Below are positions 35,860 to 39,795 of a stretch of DNA of 64,000 bases, piece after piece. Origin of the DNA: an uncultured Hungatella sp. (GTDB lineage Bacteria; Bacillota; Clostridia; Lachnospirales; Lachnospiraceae). The translations under genes and the position numbers were made by a program. The stretch covers positions 11,537-75,536 of the forward strand of contig CATLBR010000014.1 in the NCBI GenBank assembly GCA_949879795.1. The letters are read 5' to 3'. Below the pieces are notes generated by a model. That model did not search any database and had not been told where the DNA came from. It saw nothing but the letters and a program-made list of their open reading frames with translations. The first letter of the stretch is position 1. Each line of letters opens with the position of its first letter.

Positions 35860-37032
35860 ATGGAGGATCAGTGGAGACATTTAAAGATAATCAAAGATTT
35901 TTTCCAGATTCAGGAGGACGGCCAGATGCCGGAGGGCTCCAGGCTCCTTTTGGACGCCACGGAGCTGAGGAGCTTTAAGGAGGGGCAGGATCTGGTGACC
36001 GTGGGCAACCCTCCAGAGGACGGAATGTACATCATCTTGGAGGGGGAAGCCCATGTGCTGACGGCAGACGGGGCTCTCATCAACGAGCTGGGGGCAGGGG
36101 ATGTGGTAGGCGAACTTGCCCTCATCAAGGATGGGGTGAGAAAGGCCACCGTCAGGGCCGTGACGCCGGTGGTCTGCGCCAACATTGCCAGAACGCTGTT
36201 TATGGAGATTGCCCGGACCAACCACAAAGTCTACGGAGCCCTTCTGGAGCTTCTCTACACCAAGACTACCAGGGTGGTGACGGAGAGGGAGCGTCTGAAG
36301 TCGGAGCTGGAGATCGCCTCCCGCATACAGACAGGTTTTCTGCCAAAGTCTTTTGAACGGTTCTGCCGTCTTCCAAACGTGAAGATCACCGCCAGGATGA
36401 AGCCTGCCAAGGAGGTGGGGGGAGATTTCTACGACGTGTTCTTTATCGATGAACACAGGCTCTGCTTTCTGGTGGCGGACGTGTCGGGGAAAGGTGTGCC
36501 TGCCGCCCTGTTCATGACCCTGGCGAAGACCCACATCAAAAATTATATGATGCTGGATATGCCTGTGGCGGATGTGGCCGACCTGGTGAACAACCGGCTT
36601 AACGAGGACAACGAGGAGGAGCTGTTTGTCACCGTCTTCATCTGTGTGCTGAATACGGACACGGGAGAGCTTAAATTTGTGAACGCGGGACACAACAAGC
36701 CTTTTGTCAGCCGGGACGGAGAACCTTTCGGCCAGATGGACTGCAAGGTGGATTTTGTCCTGGGGATCATGGAGGATATGCCTTACCGGGAGCAGTCCGC
36801 TTACCTGATGCCCGGGGATCGGATCTGCCTGTACACCGACGGGGTGACGGAGGCCTTTGACGTGGACGGGAAGATGTTCTCGGATGACGGGATGGAGGAC
36901 GCGTTAAACCGCCATATGGCGGAGGCGGGAGAGCCGGAGATTTTTATCGAGAGGCTGTATGAAGAGGTGGAGGCCTTTACCAGAGGCGCGCCTCAGTCTG
37001 ACGACATAACTATGGTATATCTGTCCAGATAG
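35860..37032 (+). CDS. cNMP-binding domain fused to a SpoIIE/RsbU-type PP2C phosphatase
   Basis: cNMP cassette 'MYIILEG...GDVVGELALI..GVRKATVRA'; PP2C 'EVGGDFYD', 'ADVSGKG', 'NAGH', 'YTDGVTEA', 'SDDIT'. Confidence 0.93.
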   Translation: MEDQWRHLKIIKDFFQIQEDGQMPEGSRLLLDATELRSFKEGQDLVTVGNPPEDGMYIILEGEAHVLTADGALINELGAGDVVGELALIKDGVRKATVRAVTPVVCANIARTLFMEIARTNHKVYGALLELLYTKTTRVVTERERLKSELEIASRIQTGFLPKSFERFCRLPNVKITARMKPAKEVGGDFYDVFFIDEHRLCFLVADVSGKGVPAALFMTLAKTHIKNYMMLDMPVADVADLVNNRLNEDNEEELFVTVFICVLNTDTGELKFVNAGHNKPFVSRDGEPFGQMDCKVDFVLGIMEDMPYREQSAYLMPGDRICLYTDGVTEAFDVDGKMFSDDGMEDALNRHMAEAGEPEIFIERLYEEVEAFTRGAPQSDDITMVYLSR

Positions 37033-37098
37033 AGTTCTCCTTGAACGCGTTCAGAGCGTTGGGAGAGAGAAAGTCATAAAGCATACAGGGAGGGAAAA

Positions 37099-37986
37099 AT
37101 GGAAGAGGGTCTTCGGATAAGATTTTGGGGAACCAGAGGTTCCATAGCGGCCCCCTACAGTGACCGGATGGAGTTCGGAGGGAACACAAGCTGTGTGTCT
37201 GTGGACTGGGCAGAAGGCCTGGCCGTCTTTGACGGGGGCACGGGGCTGGTGGAGCTGGGGCGGAGGATCAAGGAGGCGTCGGGAAGACTCTCCTCCAAAG
37301 AGACCAGGATACATATTTTCGTGAGCCACCTTCACCTGGACCATATAGTGGGGCTGTGCATGTTTCCATGTCTGTTCTGCCGCGACATGGCCATAGAACT
37401 CTATGGGCCCTGTGAAGAAGGGCTGTCGTTCAGGGAACGGTTTTGGGCGGCCATGTCCCACCCCTTCTGGCCGGTGACCATGGAGCAGACGGCGGCCAGG
37501 ATCACCTGGCATGACACGAAAGACGGGGACATATGGATCCTTCCGGGAGATGTAAAAGTGAAGGCTATGAGTTCCAGGCACCCGGACGGAGGGGTCATGT
37601 ACCGTCTGGACGGAAAAACAGGGTCTGTGGTCTACGGGCTGGACTGTGAGCCGGGGGAAGAACAGGGAGATTTCTGGAAGGCTTATGAGGAGTTTGCCAG
37701 GGGCTGCGATCTTCTGATCTTTGACGCGCCCTACGGGGAGGAAGAGTATGAGGCCCACAGGGGGTTCGGCCACGGTTTCTGGCAGCAGGGGCTTTTGATG
37801 GCGCGAAAGTGTGGTGCAGGCCGGCTGTATATCAGCCATCATGAATGGGAGAGGACGGACGGGCAGCTGGCGGCCGCGGAGAGAGAGGCCAGGCGAAAGG
37901 CCTGTGACAGGGAAGGCTTTGTCGTCTTTGCCAGAGAAGGAGCCTGTGTCTGTCTTCAGTCCGGAGATGAGAGGGGCTGTGAGTGA
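37099..37986 (+). CDS. Metallo-beta-lactamase-fold hydrolase (candidate cyclic-nucleotide phosphodiesterase)
   Basis: 'WGTRGS', 'GGNTSC', 'DGGTG', HxHxDH 'SHLHLDH', 'GFGH', 'SHH'. Confidence 0.85.
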   Translation: MEEGLRIRFWGTRGSIAAPYSDRMEFGGNTSCVSVDWAEGLAVFDGGTGLVELGRRIKEASGRLSSKETRIHIFVSHLHLDHIVGLCMFPCLFCRDMAIELYGPCEEGLSFRERFWAAMSHPFWPVTMEQTAARITWHDTKDGDIWILPGDVKVKAMSSRHPDGGVMYRLDGKTGSVVYGLDCEPGEEQGDFWKAYEEFARGCDLLIFDAPYGEEEYEAHRGFGHGFWQQGLLMARKCGAGRLYISHHEWERTDGQLAAAEREARRKACDREGFVVFAREGACVCLQSGDERGCE

Positions 37987-37992
37987 AAATCC

Positions 37993-39795
37993 ATGAAAAG
38001 TAAATCAGGAAAAATAACGGCTGCCGCGGCGGCGGTGATTACGGCATTGTCTTTTGCCGTTTTCTTTTACGGTGCGGCGGGATTCTGGGATATGGGCCTT
38101 CTGGACCGGCTCAATCAGAGAGAGTCGGCGACCAACAAAAAGATATATATCATCGGTATCGACGACAAGACTCTGGAACAATATGGGGCTGTCAATACCT
38201 GGAGCAGGCATATTCCGGCAAGATTGGTTGAGACGCTGAATCGGGATGAGAGCACCAGACCGGCGGTGATCGGATTCGATGTGATCTACAGTGAGAAGGG
38301 GGACGAGGAAGGGGACAGCCATTTCGCCCGGGCGTGCAGGGAGGCTGGGAATGTGGCGGCGGCCCTGAGCTTTTCATTCAAGGAGATGCCGGAGAGGGAT
38401 GAGAGAGGGAAGGTGGCCTACAACCCATATCATGTAGAGTATGTCATCGCTCCCTATGACAGCCTGAGGGACCAGGTGACCGTGGGATATGCCAACACGG
38501 CGGTGGACCGTGACGGGGTCGTGCGTCAGGCCATGGCCTGCATAGACTATGAAGGGGAGAGGGTCTACAGCCTTTCCTCACAGATATACAGAATGTATCA
38601 GGAAAGCAGGGGGGAGGAGGCGGTTTTTCCCCCCGTGTACGGCAGGGGAAACCTGTACTATTTTTCTTATTCCGGAAAGCCTGGGGGATATAATATGGTG
38701 TCCATGGCGGAGGTGCTGGACGGAACCGTGGATCCCAGGCTCTTTAAGGACGCCATCGTACTGGTGGGGGCCTGTGCGGTAGGGATGCAGGATTCCTACA
38801 CTCCGGCTGTCTCTCACAGCAGCCAGATGTACGGGGTGGAGATCCATGCCAACATTATCGACGCACTTCTGAAAGGGAAGACCCAGCTTCCTGTACAGCC
38901 CTTTTTCTATGGGGCCGGCGCTGCTATCCTGTGCGGAGTGTTCTTTCTGCTCACACGGAAGATGAAGATCATTCCCGCATCTGTAAGTACGGCAGTTTTG
39001 ATTCTGGCGGACATAGTTTTTGCCAGATTTATGTACAGCCGCGGGATTCTGGTTCCTGTGGCGCTGATTCCGGTGGTTGTGGCCCTGCTCTATGGGGAGC
39101 GGGTTATTGAAGGGTATCTGGCGGAAATCCTGCGCAGGCGCAGGGTGGTGAACGTGTTCAAACAGTATGTGGCGCCTCAGATTGTGGAGAAGATCAGCAG
39201 GGACACGGATTTTGAACTGGTGCTGGGAGGAGAGAACCGGCATATTGCCGTCCTGTTCGTGGATATCCGGGGCTTTACCACCATGTCGGAGAGCCTGAGG
39301 CCGGAGGAGGTGGTGGAGATTCTCAACGAGTACCTGAGCCTGACCACCAAGTCCATCTTTGACAACGGAGGAACTCTGGATAAATTTGTGGGGGATGCCA
39401 CAATGGCCGTGTTCAACGCTCCCTTTGCCCTGGACGATTACATATTCAAGGCGGTTTGCACGGCGTGGGATATGAAAGCCGGGGCGGATGCCATCGCGGA
39501 AAAGTTCGAAAAGCGGTTCGGGAAAACCGTGGCCTTCGGAATCGGCGTCAACTGCGGGGATGCGGTGGTGGGGAATATAGGCTGTGAATTCCGCATGGAT
39601 TACACCGCCATCGGGGACACGGTGAACACTGCGGCAAGGCTGGAGAGCAACGCGAAACGGGGCCAGATTCTCATCAGCCAGGCGGTCTACGAGGCGGTAA
39701 AAGACAGGGTGAAAGTGACACCCATGGGTGAGATTCCCCTGAAGGGCAAAAGCAAAGGCGTGTTTGTGTATCAGGTAGATGAAGTGAGGAGATAG
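37993..39795 (+). CDS. CHASE2-domain class III adenylate cyclase
   Basis: CHASE2 'IGIDDKTL...W.R...IGFDV...DRDGVVR...YGVEIHAN', three TM helices, cyclase 'LFVDIRGFT', 'DKFVGDA', 'YTAIGDTVNTAARLES'; the Lys/Thr pair indicates ATP specificity. Confidence 0.95.
   Translation: MKSKSGKITAAAAAVITALSFAVFFYGAAGFWDMGLLDRLNQRESATNKKIYIIGIDDKTLEQYGAVNTWSRHIPARLVETLNRDESTRPAVIGFDVIYSEKGDEEGDSHFARACREAGNVAAALSFSFKEMPERDERGKVAYNPYHVEYVIAPYDSLRDQVTVGYANTAVDRDGVVRQAMACIDYEGERVYSLSSQIYRMYQESRGEEAVFPPVYGRGNLYYFSYSGKPGGYNMVSMAEVLDGTVDPRLFKDAIVLVGACAVGMQDSYTPAVSHSSQMYGVEIHANIIDALLKGKTQLPVQPFFYGAGAAILCGVFFLLTRKMKIIPASVSTAVLILADIVFARFMYSRGILVPVALIPVVVALLYGERVIEGYLAEILRRRRVVNVFKQYVAPQIVEKISRDTDFELVLGGENRHIAVLFVDIRGFTTMSESLRPEEVVEILNEYLSLTTKSIFDNGGTLDKFVGDATMAVFNAPFALDDYIFKAVCTAWDMKAGADAIAEKFEKRFGKTVAFGIGVNCGDAVVGNIGCEFRMDYTAIGDTVNTAARLESNAKRGQILISQAVYEAVKDRVKVTPMGEIPLKGKSKGVFVYQVDEVRR

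Follow-up and report, generated by a model that had tools for sequence, protein, structure and literature searches.

A predicted cAMP-tuned, sigma-free partner switch in a type IV secretion-like operon of an uncultured Hungatella species

Low-GC Gram-positive bacteria are not generally known to have a CRP-type cyclic AMP (cAMP) network. A 64,000-nucleotide stretch from an uncultured Hungatella sp. (contig CATLBR010000014.1, positions 11,537 to 75,536 of the forward strand; hereafter the window) nevertheless carries, in one gene run, a predicted adenylate cyclase, a PP2C phosphatase fused to a cyclic nucleotide monophosphate (cNMP)-binding domain (cNMP-PP2C), an RsbW-like kinase, a STAS protein and a type IV secretion system (T4SS)-like machine. 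The question raised by this locus is what such a partner switch senses and what it controls. The reading that we prefer, with a probability of about 0.45, is that cAMP tunes the phosphatase and that the STAS protein acts directly on secretion, in the manner of SiaABCD or BtrUVW. The locus would then be an unfamiliar form of sigma-free partner switching, in which a predicted cAMP receptor provides the input and either of two outputs can follow. Gene-level conclusions were drawn from sequence and models; G- and L-numbers are labels of the genomes and loci compared, and the source genome, G000, is 65% complete.

A partner switch without a sigma factor

The run comprises 23 genes (12984 to 44573), all on the same strand and separated by gaps of at most ~95 bp. 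It holds the RsbW-like kinase, the STAS protein, the VirD4/VirB4 system, the cNMP-PP2C, a metallo-β-lactamase (MBL)-fold hydrolase and a CHASE2 cyclase. The five signaling proteins from which an earlier sequence-only reading had built a cAMP-gated circuit were all recovered in place, with Pfam domains and intact motifs. As that reading had it, phosphatase, hydrolase and cyclase are consecutive, and RsbW and STAS lie about 22 kb upstream in the same run. The phosphatase gene is 22.0 kb downstream of the STAS gene. The genes in the interval include those for a CPBP protease, VirD4, VirB4 and a pilin, a pair of VirB6-like genes and two large genes for kinase-like proteins. A FecR-domain membrane protein (43008–44573) that travels with the cyclase had been missed in that reading. 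The genes of the proposed circuit are as follows.

12984–13409, + strand: RsbW/SpoIIAB-like serine kinase, 141 amino acids (HATPase_c_2, E 3e-23)
13410–13883, + strand: acidic DUF1292 protein between RsbW and STAS (Pfam), adjoining STAS in most loci of the same clade
13864–14145, + strand: stand-alone STAS protein, 93 amino acids, with phospho-acceptor candidate Ser47 (Pfam STAS, E 4e-15; TIGR00377 above cut-off)
35860–37032, + strand: cNMP-binding domain fused to a SpoIIE-type PP2C phosphatase (Pfam), 390 amino acids, soluble
37099–37986, + strand: MBL-fold hydrolase, candidate cyclic-nucleotide phosphodiesterase (Lactamase_B_2, E 6e-11)
37993–39795, + strand: membrane-bound class III nucleotidyl cyclase with a CHASE2 domain and ATP-type residues (Pfam CHASE2, E 1e-42; Guanylate_cyc, E 3e-26)
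43008–44573, + strand: membrane-anchored FecR-domain protein (Pfam FecR), in the cassette in both T4SS and T4SS-free contexts

The kinase has the N, DxG and G boxes of GHKL kinases (N47, D82, G107–G110); its best NCBIfam match is RsbW, yet it scores far under the sigma-B RsbW cut-off. Ser47 of the STAS protein lines up with the serine that we take to be the phospho-site of RsbV, and is unchanged in 18/18 T4SS-linked STAS proteins. Three STAS proteins are encoded in G000, one SpoIIAA-like and two T4SS-linked. The observation that no sigma factor is in view also stood. The 54 open reading frames (ORFs) scanned with Pfam, out of 171 listed for this stretch, gave no member of the sigma-70 family, and the contig of the locus carries none of the 12 Sigma70_r2 matches in the 65% complete genome. 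A cognate sigma factor within the operon, a trait of Rsb/SpoII-type partner switches, is thus not seen here.

Predicted synthesis, binding and removal of cAMP

In the phosphatase, Pfam placed the cNMP-binding domain at residues 37–121 (E 1e-17) and the SpoIIE domain at 197–389 (E 1.6e-46). The metal-binding Asp motifs (D189, D207, D327 and D381) are present. The family numbers 534 proteins, and motif counts were taken from the 120 listed: all four metal-Asp motifs are kept in 114/120 and the phosphate-binding cassette, G84-E85...R94-x-A96, in 119/120. The residue after the cassette Arg was Lys in 85 of these homologs, Ala in 22, Gly in 11 and Arg in 1, and never Ser or Thr. A PKG-type Thr/Ser at this point is a mark of cGMP binding, and its lack would fit cAMP; the best Protein Data Bank matches of the domain include PKG and PKA alike. 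Among four cNMP domains in G000, that of the phosphatase is the only one with the G-E...R-x-A cassette. A stand-alone 161-amino acid cNMP-domain protein lacking the cassette Arg is encoded at G000:C3:6652-7134.

A structure model of the cNMP-PP2C (predicted local distance difference test, pLDDT, 80) joined the two domains by a single long low-confidence helix (residues 123–157), and the modeled PP2C fold resembles the phosphatase domains of RssB, Rv1364c, SiaA and SpoIIE. On the PP2C tree, the cNMP-fused domains form a single clade (27 rows, support 100/99) with sister T4SS-type and GGDEF-type groups, the T4SS-type phosphatases being a separate clade that spans two genera. Class-wide draws, with 400 genomes scored, gave a cNMP-PP2C in none outside the family. 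No account of a cAMP-binding or cNMP-fused PP2C partner switch was found in the literature searched; domain-architecture surveys in subscription papers or supplements may list a cNMP-SpoIIE fusion.

The cyclase has one N-terminal hydrophobic helix and three after CHASE2. All of its catalytic residues are present: D424 and D468, presumably the two metal Asp; K464 and T538, taken as the substrate Lys and Thr/Asp; and N545 and R549, taken as the transition-state Asn and Arg. The ATP-specifying Lys/Thr pair claimed for it was thus seen, in alignment with Pseudomonas aeruginosa CyaB at the catalytic motifs, and its closest structural matches are adenylate cyclases such as CyaB. No other class III cyclase was found in G000 (65% complete), and a class III cyclase is present in 9/9 genus genomes with a cNMP-PP2C. 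Synthesis and binding of cAMP at this locus are highly probable. The FecR-domain protein is a likely partner of the CHASE2 sensor.

The MBL hydrolase carries the HxHxDH motif plus the distal His/Asp/His ligands expected of a class II phosphodiesterase, and its residues H77, H79, D81, H82, H161, D209 and H247 are unchanged in 33 homologs. Its profile found RNase Z as the closest solved relative (E 4e-17), then BA1088 and 6kns (E 9e-10), the last of which we take to be B. subtilis YhfI. RNase Z itself is an unlikely identity: scores fall far under the cut-offs, and the interval from H161 to D209 seems to leave too little room for a tRNA-binding arm. The homologs match only Lactamase_B/B_2 in Pfam, with PF23023 on some and NF041851 far under its cut-off (E 1e-4), and PDEase_II matched none of the 33 members. 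A suspected resemblance to Myxococcus PdeA/PdeB found no support in the literature searched. In 4/4 further genus loci (L261–L264), the MBL gene adjoins a CHASE2 cyclase together with a GAF-HD protein and without a PP2C, a pairing that fits the hydrolase as a cAMP sink. When 120 MBL and 120 phosphatase homolog clusters were compared, 28 coincided in contig size against 0.9 expected, an indirect sign that the two genes are linked. The hydrolase would probably act as a cyclic-nucleotide phosphodiesterase. Its gene is present in the T4SS-type cassettes and absent from 7/7 of the T4SS-free operons described below.

L261–L264 (in G021, G027, G020 and G012) are a third context of the cyclase, with FecR genes in 3/4. 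G007, G010, G015 and G033 have FecR, protein O-mannosyltransferase-like and NHL-repeat genes between MBL and a more distant (40%) cyclase (examples at L022:6799-13800 and L025:3439-10991), which suggests cassette exchange and surface-protein glycosylation.

STAS at loci of the secretion family

The window's type of VirB4 was found in 13/41 genus genomes and in 12/350 other genomes of the family. Twenty-nine loci of this T4SS family were examined, three of them reached via phosphatase matches. A STAS gene is present in 21/29, next to CPBP-VirD4, VirD4, VirB4 or pilin genes, and in the other eight the contig end cuts off the expected place. Control loci gave STAS in 0/12 (0/3 with VirB4 of the type of integrative and conjugative elements (ICEs) and 0/9 with distant VirD4 from other families). 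On these two counts STAS goes with the secretion machine, and gene order supports it as a fixed part of this T4SS family. In the literature searched, which covered few subscription papers, no STAS was described as built into this T4SS.

The enzymes that would act on STAS vary more. RsbW was found nearby at 13/21 STAS loci and not at the other 8. A PP2C was found at 12/21; 8 of these 12, including a second T4SS locus of G000, lack a cNMP domain and carry an extended region of sensor type at the N-terminus. The sequence-only reading had left the output between a distant sigma factor and direct control of secretion, with RsbW availability as the controlled quantity. These data point to STAS as the output protein, and RsbW availability comes out weaker, RsbW being not found at 8/21 loci.

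The second T4SS operon copy in G000 (G000:C6:51800-87400; L074–L076) is 65% identical and carries STAS, RsbW, a 582-amino acid sensor-type PP2C and a 1584-amino acid kinase-like gene. In G252, a STAS fused to an APH-family phosphotransferase lies beside T4SS-linked kinases (L079:2295-3467). Small-genome Clostridia (0.8–1.6 Mb) of two other families (L265–L273) have VirD4 proteins 34–47% identical without a detected STAS; several of them also have pilin and VirB6-like genes.

The cAMP genes in T4SS-free operons

Within the genus, a cNMP-PP2C was found in 9/37 genomes searched, all nine of which have the window's VirB4 type. The gene lies inside the T4SS run in seven, beside a kinase on a short contig in one and detached in one. 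A profile search of genome contigs gave three full-length cNMP-PP2C loci among the matches listed. Five other family genomes and the named Lachnospiraceae genomes of L084 and L085, in which the window's VirB4 type was not found, have a compact operon instead.

L084:8897-15861, L085:5228-15167, L246–L249 and L251: compact T4SS-free operons with FecR, cNMP-PP2C, CHASE2 cyclase, RsbW, STAS and GGDEF genes

RsbW and STAS stand beside the phosphatase in all seven genomes, none of which has such a T4SS; cyclase and FecR are present in 6/7, both missing from the same one. At least 11 metagenome contigs have the same order, six of them near-identical. The adjacency of cNMP-PP2C, cyclase, RsbW and STAS in these operons is the best evidence that they form one circuit, and it supports the proposal that the four work as a unit. 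The GGDEF motif is intact in 13/15 distinct compact-operon sequences. No GGDEF gene was found in the window; only relatives with the compact operon have an adjacent diguanylate cyclase. The compact operon may be a relay from cAMP to cyclic di-GMP (c-di-GMP). In three compact-operon loci, a T2SSE-family ATPase gene lies downstream of the GGDEF gene.

Co-occurrence of the cAMP genes with the T4SS, as claimed in the sequence-only reading, held within the genus (9/9) and failed across the family (overlap 1/350), and the idea that they are a hallmark of this T4SS was rejected on that overlap. The cAMP arm is a swappable input: outside the genus, it occurs in only 1/12 T4SS genomes, and phosphatases with membrane sensors take its place at 8 T4SS loci. 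The cNMP-PP2C of L086 falls within the GGDEF clade, although its gene lies after that of a phosphatidylinositol 4-kinase (PI4K)-like kinase in a genome with this T4SS, and that of L181 comes directly after VirB4; the two look like independent placements of the gene beside T4SS-type genes.

A wider survey covered 80 related PP2C loci. Within 10 kb, an RsbW-like domain was found at 60, STAS at 45, VirB4 at 1 and a sigma match at 3, the last an undercount, as the profile missed an extracytoplasmic function (ECF) sigma factor seen by Pfam in L086. Sigma-free switches thus appear common in these anaerobes, serving many operons, and cAMP input and T4SS output are each optional. L060, L063 and L066 (in G009, G027 and G022) are operons, unlinked to a T4SS, of STAS, a nonribosomal peptide synthetase (NRPS)-like C-A-PP-reductase, PP2C and RsbW. 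At L078:1004-6133, L041:9151-13352 and L069, MATE-HATPase fusion and formyltransferase genes stand beside a sensor PP2C and RsbW or STAS.

Proposed mechanism and alternatives

In the mechanism that we prefer, an outside signal would reach the membrane cyclase, probably via CHASE2 and the FecR-domain protein, and the cAMP that this enzyme is predicted to produce would likely bind to the phosphatase at its cNMP domain. The cAMP-tuned phosphatase and the RsbW-like kinase would set the phosphorylation state of STAS Ser47 between them, STAS would likely act directly on the type IV secretion-like machine without a sigma factor, and the MBL hydrolase would probably remove cAMP. The favored polarity, by analogy with SiaC and SypA, is that rising cAMP turns the phosphatase on and that unphosphorylated STAS binds the target. 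That the cNMP-PP2C acts on the window STAS is probable, and direct action of STAS on secretion is rather likely. STAS is preferred over RsbW as the output protein because it is kept where RsbW was not found and because it abuts the GGDEF enzyme in the sister operons, a layout shared with SiaABCD. When STAS was modeled in complex with the ATPase domains of VirD4 and VirB4, the score was 0.12 against a mark of 0.32, and the prediction was not used as evidence.

Several points weigh against this mechanism. In G032, the cNMP-PP2C cassette lies away from T4SS genes. Across the 350 family genomes outside the genus, cNMP-PP2C occurs in 6 and VirB4 in 12, with both in 1, and genomes of a single genus are not independent of one another. 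PP2C/RsbW/STAS sets are common beside unrelated genes (NRPS-like, MATE), and STAS has no single constant neighbor at T4SS loci. In quick trees from unfinished searches on short alignments, the window STAS and RsbW fall among T4SS-linked homologs and apart from the STAS and RsbW proteins of the compact cAMP operons; in the RsbW tree, four T4SS-linked rows carried the label "other" after de-duplication. With STAS and RsbW native to the T4SS, the pairing of phosphatase and STAS is drawn across 22 kb. A second T4SS-linked STAS and PP2C are present in G000 and could cross-talk with the window switch, and a sigma factor or a further STAS may be missing from a genome that is 65% complete. The circuit as a whole is predicted from domains, motifs and gene order.

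As a first rival, the cAMP-tuned switch might free a distant sigma factor, or another transcription regulator, from RsbW and so act on operon transcription. RsbW comes first in the run with intact motifs, 12 sigma-70 family genes are present in G000 even at 65% completeness, and canonical systems operate in this way (PMC8256260). This is nonetheless an unlikely account: no sigma gene is on the contig, the survey found a sigma match within 10 kb at only 3 of 80 PP2C loci (an undercount), RsbW was not found near 8/21 STAS loci, and the kinase scores far under the sigma-B RsbW cut-off. Somewhat less likely again is that the cAMP cassette is a separate unit at the operon end, whose phosphatase serves the second T4SS STAS, SpoIIAA or the products of the adjacent kinases rather than the window STAS. 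The cassette is mobile, mostly T4SS-free in the family and detached in G032; cyclase and MBL occur with GAF-HD proteins and no PP2C in four genomes; and in T4SS loci the phosphatase follows directly on kinase or cell-wall-binding genes. Against such a separation, 7/7 T4SS-free genomes hold RsbW and STAS beside the phosphatase, T4SS-type phosphatases are a clade of their own across two genera, and sensor PP2Cs fill the role at other T4SS loci.

Reversed or feedback wiring, with the cyclase as STAS target (compare SiaD of SiaC) and cAMP as output or part of a loop, seems improbable. It would accord with the position of RsbW-STAS between cyclase and GGDEF gene in compact operons, and nucleotide cyclases directly regulated by STAS proteins are described (PMC8457831); most T4SS loci, however, keep STAS with no cyclase nearby, and the cyclase has its own extracellular sensor and is found without STAS in four genomes. 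We consider it equally improbable that STAS serves the secretion machine as a structural part and is phosphorylated only incidentally. The retention of STAS where kinase and phosphatase were not found nearby (RsbW missing at 8/21) would suit a structural part, but the phospho-site loop is unchanged and RsbW (13/21) and PP2C (12/21) recur across several lineages.

A broader version of the preferred mechanism is more doubtful than the mechanism itself. In gut Lachnospiraceae, the cAMP-binding PP2C would be a new receptor class within a portable, sigma-free switch that turns a surface signal into STAS phosphorylation with at least two outputs, these being a diguanylate cyclase beside pilus genes and a type IV machine without a relaxase, with PI4K-like kinases as its exported cargo; STAS would gate the ATPases of that machine directly. 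The earlier interpretation as a whole is partly supported. The locus is a small, complete candidate cAMP circuit in low-GC Gram-positive bacteria, with source, receptor, probable sink and phospho-relay. If borne out, it would make a PP2C phosphatase a cAMP receptor of a new kind and place an uncharacterized Gram-positive secretion system, with lipid-kinase-like proteins as candidate substrates, under post-translational control; through the sister operons, cAMP would be connected to c-di-GMP.

Comparison with known systems

A close parallel is SiaABCD of P. aeruginosa, together with BgrSTUWV-BgrR and HsbR/HsbA/HsbD, which likewise combine PP2C, serine kinase and a STAS-like protein without a sigma factor. 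The unphosphorylated switch protein SiaC acts directly on its neighbor, binding and activating SiaD (PMC8457831); the compact operons likewise end in a GGDEF gene. The present locus differs in its input, a cytoplasmic cNMP domain with a co-encoded adenylate cyclase, in a STAS of PF01740 rather than DUF1987, and in a PP2C that is soluble rather than a membrane sensor, and the window version lacks a GGDEF gene and is joined to a T4SS. Another partner-switch trio tied to secretion is BtrU/BtrV/BtrW of Bordetella. All three proteins are required for type III secretion system (T3SS) secretion and act post-transcription (PMC8256260). Here the machine is Gram-positive and T4SS-like, not a T3SS, the phosphatase is soluble and cNMP-fused, and input phosphatases vary between loci. 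RsbU/V/W-sigma B and SpoIIE/SpoIIAA/SpoIIAB-sigma F of Bacillus share the three folds and the phospho-serine loop, whereas the present locus has no sigma factor and all three of its proteins fall under the curated family cut-offs.

For the cAMP genes, a preprint on Campylobacterota (bioRxiv 10.1101/2022.03.11.484041) reports clusters of CHASE2 cyclase, phosphodiesterase and FecR genes, and c-di-GMP enzymes that are controlled by STAS-kinase/PP2C. Relative to that cluster (cyclase-phosphodiesterase-FecR-TPR), the locus adds the cNMP-PP2C and STAS switch, belongs to a cell without an outer membrane, and shows no tetratricopeptide repeat (TPR) gene. The MBL hydrolase shares the HxHxDH fold with YhfI and related MBL-fold class II phosphodiesterases (6kns, E 9e-10); B. 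subtilis YhfI prefers cAMP/cGMP (PMC9117128). The hydrolase differs in that RNase Z scores higher (E 4e-17) and that its 33 members gave no PDEase_II match.

The secretion machine resembles the T4SS of Mycoplasma ICEs (MMCAP2_0566, Mbov_0395/0396/0397), its VirB6-, pilin- and VirD4-like genes scoring above NCBIfam cut-offs. It differs in having no relaxase or integrase among the scanned ORFs, fixed chromosomal neighbors in relatives, PI4K-like kinase arrays and a built-in STAS.

Secretion machine and kinase-like genes

The genes between STAS and the phosphatase that gave recognizable matches are listed below; named homologs of the locus proteins come mostly from Lachnospiraceae.

14102–14971, + strand: CPBP/Rce1-like intramembrane protease between STAS and VirD4 (Pfam Rce1-like, E 2e-19)
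14968–16980, + strand: VirD4-like coupling ATPase (Pfam T4SS-DNA_transf; NCBIfam CD1115 family above cut-off)
18711–20168 and 20197–22953, + strand: two VirB6-like membrane proteins (NCBIfam MMCAP2_0566 and Mbov_0396 above cut-off)
22950–25643, + strand: VirB4-like ATPase (Pfam P-loop_TraG; NCBIfam Mbov_0397 at 542 bits, under the cut-off of 590)
27900–28220, + strand: VirB2-like pilin (Pfam T4SS_pilin; NCBIfam Mbov_0395 above cut-off), start set by the ribosome-binding site
30696–32876, + strand: candidate exported kinase with a predicted PI4K-II-like fold (model pLDDT 76; best Foldseek match PI4K II alpha, E 3e-4)
32902–35856, + strand: second kinase of the same family with a hydrophobic segment and a cell-wall-binding region (Choline_bind_2)

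In the first kinase, D494-R-H-x-x-N499 and D522/D524 are unchanged in 13 homologs; the second is 37% identical to it, in orthologs. Relatives have two to five PI4K-like kinase copies. The second kinase is fused in G008 and G011, divided into separate genes in G010 and G015, and a shortened fusion in G007 and G033; its recurrence in G008 and G011 ruled out an assembly error as the source of the 984-amino acid fusion. The 54 scanned ORFs yielded neither a relaxase nor an integrase, the pair expected at the locus of a conjugative ICE. Relaxase PF03432, the one family searched genome-wide, is absent from G000, G008 and G011 and in G121 is not near the locus.

The kinases have in common with a small ORF (26420–26701) an [IV]S[FYL]xEL-like motif that precedes a charged tail at the C-terminus; the small ORF has a conserved N-terminal helix and could encode an exported regulator. 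A profile built from the small ORF placed only ~8/29 kinase tails in the top ~1% of genome ORFs and missed the motif in the window's first kinase; the motif is a possible export signal and remains a lead. The kinase arrays, the shared motif and the lack of a detected relaxase point indirectly to protein export as the likely function of the machine.

Other features of the operon

Upstream of the run is a sigma-70-like promoter candidate that matches 10/12 consensus positions. Promoter-like sites overall numbered 14 against 10.1 ± 3.3 expected by chance, not clearly in excess, and a terminator scan was likewise not clearly above chance. The cAMP cassette is accompanied by two further genes.

12928–12956, + strand: promoter candidate ahead of the run, TTGAAA-17-TATCAT
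39796–41806, + strand: multi-pass membrane protein and family-2 glycosyltransferase

A divergent LytTR response regulator and GHKL kinase pair (10729–12828) lies ahead of the operon, as it does in several relatives, and is a candidate for its transcriptional control.

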